Of a stretch of 64,000 nt of DNA, positions 30,889 to 35,718 are shown one piece after another. The translations under genes and the position numbers were made by a program. This stretch comes from Escherichia phage 1-6bf, in the sequence record OR983334.1; one strand, 5' to 3'. The notes under the pieces are model-generated. The model had not been told where the DNA came from, ran no database searches, and saw only the letters and a list, made by a program, of their open reading frames with translations. Each line of letters begins with the position of its first letter. Position 1 is the stretch's first letter.

Positions 30889-32430
30889 TTAGTAACTCTG
30901 ATTCCATCTGCTTACGTTTGCCTCATACAGAGAAGCACTTCCGTAGCTAACATCATGTTTAGAGCGACCACGATGTGTAACAGAGCACGCTGAATAGCGC
31001 ATTGCATCCATTAAGTCATCATATTCTTTAATAATCTTACCAACCTTACGGTGATATCTAGCTTTCTCTTCGAATAGCTTAGCGTTAGCGGCTGTGTTAA
31101 AGATTTTAAAGCGTCCACTCATCATTCTTTCTCGGATATCTGTGATTCCCGGTTCTACAAAGAAGTTCTTTTTACCATCCATTCCAATTTTGTTGTAGAA
31201 GGTCTCACTCTGTACGTTAACTCCTGCATTCTTATAGAATTGAGCAACAGATGAGCCACTACCTTTCTCAATATTGTCCGCATCGTGCGGTAGGATGACA
31301 GGAATCCACTGACCACGACCATTAATAGCTGGAGCATGATACACTGGAGTAAAGCCACCTTCTTTATATGAGTCGTAAACATAGATAGTATCCGTGTTTG
31401 CGTCGTAAGCTGTCCAAACAGCAGCAGTTGGGTGATCAATACCAATATCAATTGCACAGACACGTTTCCACGTATCGGGAATTTCGAATGGCTCACATTT
31501 AATTGTGTCATCCGATACATCATATATCAAACCACTTCCTAACAATGGCATACCTTTCGAACGCATTTCTAATTGCCACGCTGGAATACCTTCAGTCATA
31601 TCTTTTATATCTTGGTCAGTGATATGTCCACCTAGGTCTACATGAGCATCCCACCAAGAAGCATTCTGGAAATATAGAGAACCTGTGTTCTCATCCCCTT
31701 CACCTTTCATAAATTTATCTACCAGTTCCGTTAAACCGTTCTCTGGTGTAGCTGTAATTGTAACTAGACCTTTAGTTGTGAGTGTACGTGTGACGCACTG
31801 TGCGAATATAGCCATAGACTCGTATGGATCTTCTTCGTCTAACCAAATGTAGTCAACTGTCGCACCCATCAATGTGTGTTCACCCTGTTGGGTTGAACGG
31901 AATTCTAATGTACTTAAACCGTCAAACTCTCCTCTTTCATTTTGATGTTTGATTTGTACGATTTGAAGTTTGTTACCATCTCGTTCTATCGTGTCAATGA
32001 CGATAGCATCACGAGGAATGACACCTGTCCCTAATAAGTTTGTATCCTTTCCGATAGGTGTACCAAACAATTCCTTTTGCAATACTTTCCTTGTGGAATC
32101 CCCTGTAATACCAACTGCCCATGCTAAGATAGGTCTTTTAAATTTATATCCTGTCCACCAAGTTGGGTAGCGACCTGTGACATGACAAGCAAACTCGTAT
32201 GCCTCGCTGTAAGATTTACCAACACGGTTCGCTGCACACAAGAATCTAAAGCGATGCTTCAATCCTGCTGCATAAAATTTCTTTTGGAAGTCGTACGCCT
32301 TGAAAGACAAAATCCTATTATACTTCCTCCATTGGTCACGCTCTTTCAACATATTCAATAGTGCTTTCTTTTCGTCTACACTAAGGTTGTTACCAGTTAG
32401 AGCTTCATAAATTTGTTTATCTAATGACAT
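30889..32430 (-). CDS. terminase large subunit
   Basis: Walker A-like AANRVGKS, Walker B-like IWLDEED, C-terminal nuclease-like region; GGAGG RBS. Confidence 0.9.
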   Translation of the reverse strand: MSLDKQIYEALTGNNLSVDEKKALLNMLKERDQWRKYNRILSFKAYDFQKKFYAAGLKHRFRFLCAANRVGKSYSEAYEFACHVTGRYPTWWTGYKFKRPILAWAVGITGDSTRKVLQKELFGTPIGKDTNLLGTGVIPRDAIVIDTIERDGNKLQIVQIKHQNERGEFDGLSTLEFRSTQQGEHTLMGATVDYIWLDEEDPYESMAIFAQCVTRTLTTKGLVTITATPENGLTELVDKFMKGEGDENTGSLYFQNASWWDAHVDLGGHITDQDIKDMTEGIPAWQLEMRSKGMPLLGSGLIYDVSDDTIKCEPFEIPDTWKRVCAIDIGIDHPTAAVWTAYDANTDTIYVYDSYKEGGFTPVYHAPAINGRGQWIPVILPHDADNIEKGSGSSVAQFYKNAGVNVQSETFYNKIGMDGKKNFFVEPGITDIRERMMSGRFKIFNTAANAKLFEEKARYHRKVGKIIKEYDDLMDAMRYSACSVTHRGRSKHDVSYGSASLYEANVSRWNQSY

Positions 32431-32591: not shown

Positions 32592-33065
32592 TTAACTCTC
32601 GTCCGCTTCCTCCCCCTTTTCAGCGTCCTCAGAGTTGTCTTCTTCTGGAGGCATAACGTCGATACCAAGTGCTCCAGTCAAGAAGTCCTTGATTTGTGCA
32701 TTCAATGATTCTTCGTTGATTACATTCTCTTCCTCAATCTTAACTTCAACAGAGGCCGCCTTAGGATATACCAGATCTGCAACTTTTGATGCAGCCTTGA
32801 ATCTAAGATCGGGTGGAATATTAGGATCTTCGTAAATTTGAATTAACACTTCATCAGGAGACAAATGACTTGCAGCAACACGGTCCAACATTAATTGTGT
32901 CAGTTTACCTCTACTACCTCTGGGTCGTCCGAATTTATTTCCCTTTTGAAACTTCCCATTGCTTGGGTTCATACCACGGCTTTCGAGTTCTTCCGTTACT
33001 CCGGGTAATCTTCCTGTAATCTCAGCTACCTGTGCAGGCGTGAGTTCTCCGTTTTCTCCAAACAT
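32592..33065 (-). CDS. terminase small subunit candidate
   Basis: 157 aa directly upstream of TerL; HTH-like LTPAQVAEITG; acidic C-terminus. Confidence 0.45.
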   Translation of the reverse strand: MFGENGELTPAQVAEITGRLPGVTEELESRGMNPSNGKFQKGNKFGRPRGSRGKLTQLMLDRVAASHLSPDEVLIQIYEDPNIPPDLRFKAASKVADLVYPKAASVEVKIEEENVINEESLNAQIKDFLTGALGIDVMPPEEDNSEDAEKGEEADES

Positions 33066-34013: not shown

Positions 34014-34156
34014 AATTCTTCTCCTCTGAATAAGAGTATAAAGGGCACATCATAAGACCTACCCGTAAAGGCACCCTCACATTGACACCCGTGAGCATAC
34101 CTGTATTCATTTTCGTAGTCTTCTTCAGAGAAGCTACCATATTCATCTTCAGTCAT
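34010..34156 (-). CDS. small acidic protein
   Basis: 48 codons (MTEDEYGSFSEEDYENEY...), AGAGGG RBS, ATGA overlap with next gene. Confidence 0.3.
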   Translation of the reverse strand: MTEDEYGSFSEEDYENEYRYAHGCQCEGAFTGRSYDVPFILLFRGEEL

Positions 34157-34178
34157 AAATCCCTCTGATAAAGTTAAG

Positions 34179-34235
34179 ACATAAAGGGGACTTCATGTTA
34201 AGGCACCCCCATAAAGGCCATGTCACGTTAAGGCT
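34179..34235. repeat. two tandem copies of a 27-bp direct repeat ATAAAGG-N10-GTTAAGGC
   Basis: ACATAAAGGGGACTTCATGTTAAGGCA and CCATAAAGGCCATGTCACGTTAAGGCT, read directly. Confidence 0.4.
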
Positions 34236-34434
34236 TATCCACCCACGTACTGAATCTCAACTTACCACATTCCTTACACTTCCATGTTGATAGATACAAA
34301 CCATGTATTCTTTCATCCCCGTAAGCTTTACGAAGAAGATAGTAATTGTGCTTACACTTCATCCGTCTAAATACTTTAATTAGATTCATTAAGTCCTCTC
34401 TTAAGCTTAAATCCACAACATAAAGTTGGGGCAT
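34228..34434 (-). CDS. small zinc-ribbon protein, first gene of - strand block
   Basis: 68 aa with CxH ... CxxC pattern (MKCKHNYY ... WKCKECGK). Confidence 0.4.
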   Translation of the reverse strand: MPQLYVVDLSLREDLMNLIKVFRRMKCKHNYYLLRKAYGDERIHGLYLSTWKCKECGKLRFSTWVDKP

Positions 34435-34559
34435 ATTCTTATATATAAGAGTTTAAAATTCTGATTTGGCCGAGTGGGGCTAGCCGCTTCCCGCGCGTTT
34501 CCTAAAAAGGGGGAGTCCTCATTTAAAAAAGGGTTATTGGCAATGCCTTTACCTTCCCT

Positions 34560-35050
34560 TTCAACGTTCCACCTTTCCCCGTGCCTACTCCCCGTAGTTA
34601 TTCCCCCGTGTATACTACCCAATACATTACCTACCCGTTTATTTAGTTCCCCTTTAAAGGGTGAGAGAAAGGCTAGCACTGTATAAACTAGTACAGGCAC
34701 AACCATAACAGGTCTGATAATACCGTATTGTTACCGTTCCAATGGCAGCGTTAGCGTCGCATTCCCCCCACAGTTTGAGTGTAAATAGTTTCAATAGTAA
34801 TGATTATGAGTGCAATAATGATGTATGTATTAATTAAGTGGAAAGATAGTAATTAACAGTTATTATATTCTTTTATTACTTTCTTTTTTCAGCGTACATG
34901 AGCGTAGCGAATGGTCTTTGATGTTTGAGTTATACAATTATTTAAGTGGTATATTATTACCGCACTATCTTGCATGTTTCCCCGTGGTCTGTCCTGCGGT
35001 TGTTGTATCCCCGTTTGTCCTGGTCTGTTGGTCTGTTACCCGTAGTGTTA
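34560..35050. repeat. repeat-rich non-coding region (candidate genome terminus/packaging or origin region)
   Basis: tandem TCCCCGT-containing units at about 34576-34640 and again at about 34975-35045, GGTCTGT repeats, AT-rich stretches; no credible ORF. Confidence 0.4.
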
Positions 35051-35154
35051 TAAAGTAACAATAAGAAGTAAGCTGATTCTCTGAGTATGGAAAGTTTAGT
35101 AAATTAAATTCCTTTAGTTTTCAGTAGGATGCAAGAAAGTTAGAAAATAGATGG

Positions 35155-35182
35155 TTGACAGTCTTTTCCTTTAATATATAGT
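35155..35182 (+). promoter_or_regulatory. sigma70 consensus early promoter P1
   Basis: TTGACA-16 nt-TATAGT with A-rich upstream tract, 39 nt upstream of first early ATG. Confidence 0.6.
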
Positions 35183-35220
35183 TGTCGATAGTTGGTTGAA
35201 TTTATCTAAGGAGTAACGAA

Positions 35221-35718
35221 ATGGCTAAAGCAATGCAGGTAGTTAATCTGGCAAGTTATGCACTAGTTGCAGCGATTGGTGTTAGTGCACTGGTCACATC
35301 TCTTTCTGATAAGGCTATCGCTAGTCCTACTCCTACTCCTGCAACTGATGCGGCTAGTGTCTTCTCTAGTTCCATCAATAAGGGTTGGATGATTTGTAAC
35401 GGTGCTGATAGTGATGGCACTTCCATCGTGTTAAAGATGAAATTTAGCAACGTTACTAATGATGGTGTTCTCTTTCAATCTAAAACGCTAGATAATCAGC
35501 CTAACAGTGATTTGGTGCTTAAGCGTACCGATAACGATATGGATATGGTGACATTTGGCACTGTACAACGTTATGAAGACGTTAAAGCCGTTACTAATCT
35601 TGTGAGTTATGGTCCGGTTAATGAGTCGATGATCGCCACAACTGTTTACAATAACGCTGACAACGCTGTTTATACTGTTCACGTTAATTTAGCCAACTGC
35701 ATTAAGGCTAGTAAGTGA
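35221..35718 (+). CDS. early secreted/membrane-anchored protein
   Basis: AAGGAG RBS; N-terminal hydrophobic segment VVNLASYALVAAIGVSALV. Confidence 0.55.
   Translation: MAKAMQVVNLASYALVAAIGVSALVTSLSDKAIASPTPTPATDAASVFSSSINKGWMICNGADSDGTSIVLKMKFSNVTNDGVLFQSKTLDNQPNSDLVLKRTDNDMDMVTFGTVQRYEDVKAVTNLVSYGPVNESMIATTVYNNADNAVYTVHVNLANCIKASK

Follow-up and report, generated by a model that had tools for sequence, protein, structure and literature searches.

The 64,000-nucleotide stretch of the genome of Escherichia phage 1-6bf analysed here (OR983334.1; hereafter the window) contains a non-coding gap of 786 bp (positions 34435–35220) between two divergent genes, the last on the − strand (start at 34434) and the first on the + strand (start at 35221). 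This gap is very probably the concatemer junction of a Kuravirus genome, seen in a circularly opened assembly, because it includes a 193-bp segment homologous to the direct terminal repeats (DTRs) at the mapped genome ends of relatives. A 1-kb query around the junction identified the phage as a Kuravirus (phiEco32-like podophage, Gordonclarkvirinae): 96 phage records matched, nearly all of them from phiEco32-group phages of Escherichia or Shigella, and the best match was phage 1-6af (98.4% over the full 1-kb query), in whose record the homologous region is likewise internal and no CDS is present between the counterparts of window positions 34434 and 35221. The Kuravirus terminal repeat is an established feature, known from the phiEco32 genome paper onward, and several close relatives carry an annotation for it.

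The terminal repeat and its boundaries

The DTR occupies positions 34482–34674 and, in genome orientation (the − strand of the window), reads AGCCTTTCTCTCAC...GGGAAGCGGCT. An exact 193-bp direct repeat was verified at both ends of each of the linear records of phiEco32, SU10, and YF01, and its homologue in the window has the identical length and the same first and last bases (AGCC...GGCT); identity to the DTR-bearing records is 85–95%, and that to phiEco32 is approximately 92% over the DTR plus 44 nt. When record ends were mapped with the repeat plus or minus 100 nt as the query, the first base of the phiEco32, Paul, LAMP, WFI101126, and CHD5UKE1 records aligned to window position 34674, as did the record starts of IME267, ES17, and KM01, offset by one mismatched base, and the final base of the SU10 and YF01 records aligned to 34482. 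In the records of YF01, Paul, and 4E8 the segment bears the annotation direct terminal repeat, and in that of LAMP repeat_region. The ends of phiEco32 were established with restriction profiling, primer walking, and subcloning, those of YF01 were obtained from full-length nanopore reads, and those of Paul from PhageTerm (PMC9965538); those of SU10 were located through homology with phiEco32, and an abrupt fall in reads, indicative of blunt ends, confirmed them (PMC4281155).

By homology to these mapped ends, the virion DNA of 1-6bf is predicted to be linear and to carry the 193 bp at both ends, with the left end at 34674 and the right end at 34482, and this placement of the physical ends is the practical outcome of the analysis. 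The initial annotation had placed a candidate genome terminus, or a terminal repeat, between the last late gene and the first early promoter, a proposal that is supported both by the 193-bp homologue and by the alignment of the relatives' ends. Nothing essential distinguishes the segment from the DTRs of phiEco32, SU10, YF01, Paul, and LAMP, with which it shares homologous sequence, length, end bases, flanking genes, and promoter; unlike in the Kuravirus DTR records, the repeat in this assembly, like that in 1-6af, is internal and single-copy. A single copy in the 64-kb window is expected of a collapsed assembly, and since the repeat is internal and single, the deposited coordinates, like those of the 1-6af GenBank record, are permuted relative to virion DNA and one 193-bp copy short.

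On these alignments, the junction would consist of a left-end leader (34435–34481), the DTR, the right-end non-coding DNA (34675–35154), and an early promoter (35155–35182); the DNA from 34481 downward, with its − strand genes, would form the left arm, and that from 34675 upward the right arm, the last approximately 550 bp of which are non-coding up to the early promoter at 35155. The flanking synteny matches that of the Kuravirus DTR, with gene 1 through the small and large terminase subunits (TerS and TerL) on one side and a sigma-70 promoter and a gene of the gp128 family on the other. Gene 1 (34228–34434, − strand) is the first left-arm gene, and the leader that separates it from the DTR (− strand) is conserved; its counterpart in Table S2 of the SU10 paper is the “upstream region of CDS1” with “a potential sigma-70 promoter.” At the opposite edge, the early sigma-70 promoter (TTGACA-16-TATAGT, + strand) matches 11 of 12 consensus positions, is annotated in SU7 and 4E8, and corresponds to the early promoter listed upstream of CDS125 in the same SU10 table. 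Behind it lies the first early gene of the right end (35221–35718, + strand), the 165-aa product of which is, in a PHROG comparison, a short form of the 290-aa phiEco32 gp128 family.

The terminase genes are located 1.4–3.6 kb from the junction. TerL (30889–32430, − strand) was identified by the Pfam domains Terminase_6N and Terminase_6C and by the PHROG family terminase large subunit, has the nuclease domain of P22 TerL as its nearest solved structure (4DKW, E = 7e-31), and is the enzyme expected to cut the DTR boundaries. The 157-aa candidate TerS (32592–33065, − strand) was assigned by position only, immediately upstream of TerL; its homologue in YF01 is annotated “putative terminase small subunit,” Pfam and PDB sequence searches with the candidate gave no matches, and its single-sequence AlphaFold2 model is of low confidence (pLDDT 57, pTM 0.23).

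Both boundaries of the DTR lie in the sequence GGCT↓AGC (the arrow marks the cut). At boundary A (34478–34484), which is embedded in the perfect palindrome GGCTAGCC, the cut falls between 34481 and 34482 and yields the mature right genome end; at boundary B (34671–34677), it falls between 34674 and 34675 and yields the mature left genome end. A search of the + strand found GGCTAGC only twice in the 64 kb, at these two sites. The context of boundary A is kept as (G/C/A)(G/C)CT↓AG(C/G) in eight sequences carrying the junction, and that of boundary B as GGC(T/C)↓A(G/T) in relatives, with GGCT↓ATAC in YF01, SU10, and TH38, so that the common cut context over all relatives reduces to approximately (G/C)C(T/C)↓A(G/T), about 4–5 nt. 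The presence of both cuts in a GGCT↓AG context suggests one nuclease specificity for the two boundaries; a context of this kind is not strong, and the single specificity is suggestive. In an alignment of 13 sequences, which includes other genera (SU7, EP335, Bas87, and 4E8), conservation drops from 0.87 to 0.30 exactly at 34674/34675, which, read from sequence alone, lends boundary B independent support. A variable spacer (34675–34760; identity 0.13–0.69) begins exactly at this boundary and is represented by at least two alternative sequence types among the relatives.

Oriented repeats and conserved blocks at the junction

The pentamer CCCGT is clustered on one strand of the junction. Array 1 (34576–34638, + strand) lies inside the DTR, with copies at 34578, 34591, 34605, and 34634 (core spacings of 13, 14, and 29 nt) that belong to the words TCCCCGT (34576 and 34589), CCCCCGT (34603), and TACCCGT (34632). 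On the genome strand these copies read ACGGG at DTR positions 93, 80, 66, and 37, and these four positions of the core are identical in the window, phiEco32, SU10, and YF01. The description of this cluster in the initial annotation, as four tandem TCCCCGT-containing units at about 34576–34640, holds for the four CCCGT cores; only two of them are exact heptamers, and the units are not strictly tandem, the cluster being uncalled by TRF as a tandem array and appearing in a repeat search as three 20-nt units of 70–80% identity. The second cluster of TCCCCGT and GGTCTGT described there (about 34975–35045) was recovered as array 2 (34979–35043, + strand), which is located in the unique non-coding DNA of the right end, approximately 300 bp outside the DTR. 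It comprises CCCGT at 34981, 35010, and 35039 (29-nt spacing), within TCCCCGT at 34979 and 35008 and TACCCGT at 35037, together with GGTCTGT at 34986, 35022, and 35030. The copy number (3 to 4) and spacing in array 2 differ between genera, and the orientation is constant.

Three further copies are located on the + strand in the unique DNA of the left end (34062–34322), at 34062, 34088, and 34318, inside or near small − strand ORFs, and phiEco32, SU10, and YF01 retain them at their left ends despite differing neighbouring gene content. The array is wider than initially described, these three copies lying to the left of the region first delimited. In all, 10 copies of CCCGT occur on the same strand between 34062 and 35039, three in the left arm, four in the DTR, and three in the right arm, with none on the opposite strand; the spacing is roughly 13–14 or 26–29 nt, corresponding to a base period of approximately 13–14 nt.

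Within 34440–35150, seven copies were counted on the + strand and none on the − strand, compared with 0.21–0.25 expected (Poisson P approximately 3e-9 to 1e-8). An unbiased k-mer count ranked CCCGT/TCCCCGT first and GGTCTG second, and the array words, which occur at chance frequency across the whole window, are strongly clustered at the junction. One-strand CCCGT was found in 13/13 sequences compared (4–9 copies each, none on the other strand), and within the DTR the CCCGT columns exceed the remaining ones in conservation (0.96 vs. 0.89 among close relatives and 0.83 vs. 0.63 among distant ones).

The most conserved elements of the junction are not the CCCGT copies; they are the blocks at 34498–34533, 34800–34841, 34880–34895, 34941–34964, and 35090–35116. 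The first of these, TTTCCTAAAAAGGGGGAGTCCTCATTTAAAAAAGGG, is the most conserved block of the DTR (identity 0.92–1.00 over 11 relatives). On the genome strand it contains two CCCTTTTT(T)A repeats 10 nt apart, approximately 21 nt from the right genome end, and it corresponds to the internal repeat CCCTTTTTTA-10-CCCTTTTTTA of SU10 (PMC4281155) and to the conserved 130–170 region of the YF01 paper (PMC9965538). The block at 34880–34895, TTTCTTTTTTCAGCGT, is near-invariant, its CTTTTTCAGCGT being unchanged in 13/13 sequences. A scan of IMG/VR with a conserved 16-mer gave nine loci, namely four known or close Kuravirus sequences, two distant relatives of 88–90 kb, and three unrelated loci (L016, L018, and L021) that were rejected as chance matches to the 16-mer. 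The blocks at 34498–34533 and 34880–34895 persist in the two far more distant 88–90 kb contigs, one of which (L023) has the similar TTTCTTTCAGCGT in place of the latter. These contigs retain the A/G-tract block and carry few copies of CCCGT, which suggests that the CCCGT array may be accessory.

The remaining blocks lie in the right-end non-coding DNA. That at 34800–34841, ATGATTATGAGTGCAATAATGATGTATGTATTAATTAAGTGG (identity 0.88–0.96), is kept in SU7, Bas87, EP335, and 4E8 and includes a near miss to AATGTA, the core of the promoter recognized by the phage sigma factor gp36. A gp36 promoter at 34819–34829 was rejected, as the site has two mismatches to tAATGTATAtA and AATGTA occurs there in none of the relatives; a gp36-type TAATGTAT within the DTR (− strand) is lineage-specific, phiEco32 having TAATGAAT at this place, and hence is probably due to chance. 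The block at 34941–34964, TTTAAGTGGTATATTATTACCGCA (+ strand, identity 0.86–0.94), contains the extended −10-like TGgTATATT and is a candidate for an extra sigma-70 promoter or a protein-binding site; its TTAAGTGG part (34942–34949) co-varies across lineages with a copy at 34834–34841. The AT-rich sequence between the two repeat clusters, also pointed out initially, was confirmed, with a GC content of 0.20–0.26 across 34800–34900.

The approximately 700 bp initially regarded as lacking a credible ORF proved to be devoid of genes over the full 786 bp. Mechanical prediction gives ORFs of 99 aa on the − strand and 70 aa on the + strand across the junction, and a PHROG search found no family for either; the 99-aa frame is already interrupted in phage 1-6af, which is 98% identical, and third codon positions are the least variable in the junction ORFs, the opposite of a coding pattern. 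A hidden gene was ruled out on these three grounds, and the mechanical ORFs across the junction can be marked as non-genes. Searches of the junction for tRNAs and against Rfam gave no matches. Hairpins or cruciforms in the DTR were also rejected: both strands fold less stably than shuffled sequences (z = +1.0 and +1.4), and the inverted repeats are short, imperfect, and unconserved.

It is very improbable that the region has no function, with its repeats produced by compositional drift in a pyrimidine-rich non-coding strand, or that it conceals a small gene. The + strand is indeed C-rich at 34550–34650 (C minus G of +17 and +12 per 50 nt), and open frames of 66–98 codons run across the DTR in several relatives. 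However, drift does not account for a motif orientation that is kept in all 13 sequences while the flanking bases change, nor for motif columns more conserved than their neighbours, and the ORFs, besides having no coding signature or family and being broken in the nearest relative, would be split by the physical ends of the genome.

Parallels with T7 and possible roles of the junction elements

Both genome ends of T7 were retrieved and examined directly for comparison. T7 has an exact DTR of 160 bp, with the heptamer CCTAAAG present three times inside the repeat, eight times after its left copy, and twice before its right copy; the opposite strand has none there, and the base period is 13 nt; the sequences that follow the two cuts resemble each other (TCTCACAG vs. 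ATCTGTTACAG). The Kuravirus junction is similar in having a short exact DTR (193 bp), a core of 5–7 nt that recurs on one strand, both within the DTR and on either side of it, at a base period of approximately 13 nt, similar sequence after each cut, and early promoters just inside an end. It differs in that no sequence similarity exists and in that the T7 array is concentrated after the left repeat, whereas the array of 1-6bf is symmetric (3 + 4 + 3). The packaging enzymes also differ: TerL gave E = 1.3 in a BLASTP comparison with T7 gp19 and has instead a P22-like nuclease domain, and the candidate TerS is unrelated to T7 gp18. According to the SU10 paper (PMC4281155), phiEco32-like phages have no RNA polymerase of their own, and the mechanism by which their concatemers are cut and the repeat is duplicated is called unknown there. 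T7-style RNA polymerase-dependent processing of the junction would therefore be inapplicable, and this reported lack, together with the dissimilarity of TerL and gp19, means that the T7 mechanism cannot be transferred wholesale. The region thus works like a T7-type terminal repeat in a phage that lies outside the T7 packaging family.

Short repeats near a packaging site have counterparts in other systems. The R sites of lambda cosB and the pacL and pacR boxes of SPP1 are recognition sites for the small terminase subunit made up of several short repeats. The likeness would consist in short oriented repeats beside a terminase cut site, close to the terminase genes, and the difference in that these phages form cohesive termini or genomes permuted by headful packaging, as opposed to exact blunt terminal repeats. 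Literature searches on T7 pac sites and Gordonclarkvirinae termini added nothing about repeat motifs. The oriented CCCGT array, the common cut context, and the parallel with the T7 array appear to be undescribed in the phiEco32-group literature examined, and they are presented here as candidates rather than established findings.

The events at the junction may be envisaged as follows, on the basis of the family literature and of T7 as a paradigm. Once the DNA has been injected, the sigma-70 promoters just inside each end would fire inward; replication would generate head-to-tail concatemers with a single repeat common to each pair of adjacent genomes; TerL and the candidate TerS would cut the concatemer at both repeat boundaries; and the DTR would be duplicated by DNA synthesis, giving two copies per packaged genome. 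In SU10, homopolymer-length variants differ between the left and right DTR copies (PMC4281155), which fits a duplication step. The invariant A/G-tract block AAAAAGGGGGAGTCCTCAT, approximately 25–45 nt from boundary A, would be a putative cis signal for the packaging/end-processing complex, and the one-directional CCCGT array would be another, on which this complex is assembled and oriented. A pac-signal function of the junction repeats is plausible, and the more specific proposal that the AAAAAGGGGGAGTCCTCAT block and the oriented array act in cis to recruit the packaging complex and set its direction is tentative, somewhat short of an even chance.

A purely transcriptional function is a less probable account of the same repeats. 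They would then serve as operators through which a phage or host regulator controls the divergent early promoters at the two genome ends, and packaging would not involve them. Sigma-70 promoters do occur at both edges of the gap, that at 35155–35182 and the one proposed for gene 1 within 34435–34481; array 2 lies 110–175 bp upstream of the early promoter, and the octamers at 34834–34841 and 34942–34949 co-vary like the sites of one binding protein. However, 4 of the 10 CCCGT copies lie in the middle of the DTR, 95–155 bp or more from either promoter and at constant distances from the repeat ends, the copies all point the same way even though the promoters diverge, and the like architecture of T7 is tied to its terminal repeat; an exclusively regulatory role is on this evidence quite unlikely.

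A replication origin, with the CCCGT clusters as iteron-like sites flanking an AT-rich unwinding region at 34800–34900, is also unlikely, if marginally less so, and could coexist with the DTR. The low GC content of this segment and its position between two repeat clusters would suit such an origin, as would the high conservation of the promoter-like blocks at 34800–34841 and 34941–34964, from which transcription could possibly prime replication, as at phiOR and phiOL of T7. These two T7 sites are secondary origins, and their promoters flank the T7 junction. The cumulative GC skew also reaches its minimum at the junction of 1-6bf, but the switch in skew coincides with the switch in gene strand and is for this reason not independent evidence of an origin. 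Further points stand against this reading: the repeat units share a core of only 5–8 nt, compared with the 17–22 bp of typical iterons; no DnaA box (with up to one mismatch) is present in 34435–35220; the adjoining genes include no replication-initiator family in PHROG; and the three additional CCCGT copies inside left-arm genes fit an array centred on the genome end better.

Under the packaging interpretation preferred here, the CCCGT array, the AAAAAGGGGGAGTCCTCAT block, and the GGCT↓AG context may together constitute a code for packaging and end duplication in a short-DTR phage that has a P22-like terminase nuclease and, according to the literature, no RNA polymerase of its own, which is a doubtful possibility. 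The scientific value of the analysis is limited, and the conserved elements are offered as candidates to be examined by mutagenesis and binding assays. The likeness to the repeat arrays of T7 hints at a shared requirement; if the reading as a code is true, the CCCGT array would have converged with the CCTAAAG array of T7, and such arrays would be a general requirement of exact-DTR packaging.

Repeat boundaries and the packaging enzyme

Immediately beyond boundary B, the cut at 34674/34675 that defines the left genome end, lies a hypervariable spacer (window 34675-34760), the onset of which coincides exactly with the edge of the direct terminal repeat. Among relatives this spacer comes in no fewer than two alternative forms, AGCACTGTACAGGCA... 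versus ATACTCTGTTAAGGCG..., and such variation suggests recombinational exchange beside the genome end. The SU7 record stops at a distance of 53 nt from the homologue of boundary B (positions 1-53 of locus L009, the right end of SU7), indicating that the reported "53-bp DTR" of SU7 has this boundary in common with the present repeat. Bas87, a close relative of SU7, contains a full-length homologue of the repeat, including GGACCT|AGCC, which resembles boundary A, the cut at the right genome end. This comparison suggests that the SU7 repeat was under-called, as already suspected by the authors of the SU7 report. The large terminase (30889-32430, minus strand) has a nuclease domain nearest to that of P22 (4DKW, E = 7e-31), and no similarity to T7 gp19 was detectable; P22 is a headful packager, yet the phage studied here, with this P22-like nuclease domain, has exact short terminal repeats.

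Motifs in the repeat and the left arm

Three extra copies of the CCCGT motif, on the same strand as the rest, were identified beyond the interval 34440-35150, in or near small open reading frames (ORFs) of the left arm (34062-34066, 34088-34092 and 34318-34322), which renders the array symmetric around the repeat (3 + 4 + 3). These left-end copies are kept in phiEco32, SU10 and YF01 despite different neighboring genes. Within the repeat itself, TAATGTAT, the core of the promoter motif of the phage sigma factor gp36, is located at 34621-34631 on the minus strand and is directed toward the left-arm genes. This core is found in the window, 1-6af and TH38, and phiEco32, SU10 and YF01 carry TAATGAAT there; its presence in the repeat is probably due to chance. 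In addition, an imperfect 26-nt direct repeat, composed of CATAAAGGGGACTTCATGTTAAGGCA and CATAAAGGCCATGTCACGTTAAGGCT (approximately 77% identical, 30 nt apart), is positioned between two small left-arm ORFs (34180-34235), where its two units may serve as paired promoters or binding sites.

Conserved elements in the right-end non-coding DNA

The sequence TTAAGTGG occurs twice within conserved blocks (34834-34841 and 34942-34949), 108 nt apart, with an extended -10-like element, TGgTATATT, overlapping the second of them. Both sites co-vary by lineage (AAGTGG in Kuravirus, GATTGG in EP335 and 4E8, and GACTGG in Bas87 and SU7), which is the pattern expected of two sites recognized by a single DNA-binding factor that co-evolves with them. 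Between CCCGT array 2 and the early promoter, a short conserved palindrome, TGTTATAAAGTAACA (35046-35060), resembles an operator. In the region 34986-35037, two copies of GGTCTGTT and one of GGTCTGTC are similar to ATCTGTT, the heptamer found directly after the left repeat of T7, where it is the pause signal of T7 RNA polymerase, and EP335 carries an exact ATCTGTT at the corresponding place (locus L013). This likeness may be a coincidence, since a T7-type polymerase is absent from phiEco32-like phages according to the SU10 authors. The first right-end early gene (35221-35718) encodes a 165-aa product that matches only residues 129-290 of a 290-aa family (PHROG 36409; phiEco32, SU10 and YF01), with a second match to a distinct family of 163 aa (PHROG 21410); this protein is a naturally short form common to 1-6af, DE5 and 4E8.

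The A/G-tract block

Within the invariant block of the repeat (34498-34533), the border between the A-run and the G-run at 34503-34512 moves between phages (A5G5 in the window, A6G4 in SU10, and A4G6 in DE5 and TH38), with the total constant at 10. The SU10 authors observed length differences in the same homopolymer tract, both from read to read and when the left copy of the repeat was set against the right one (PMC4281155). Two IMG/VR contigs from distant, much larger relatives (L019, 90,425 bp; L023, 87,959 bp) keep TATAGGCCCGCGCG-N10-TAAAAGGGGGAGTCCTCAT, and L023 also keeps TTTCTTTCAGCGT. Both contain few CCCGT copies, with L019 instead harboring two copies of CCCCACGT. Judged from this retention in the two contigs where CCCGT is scarce, the A/G-tract block is the most deeply conserved element of the terminus.
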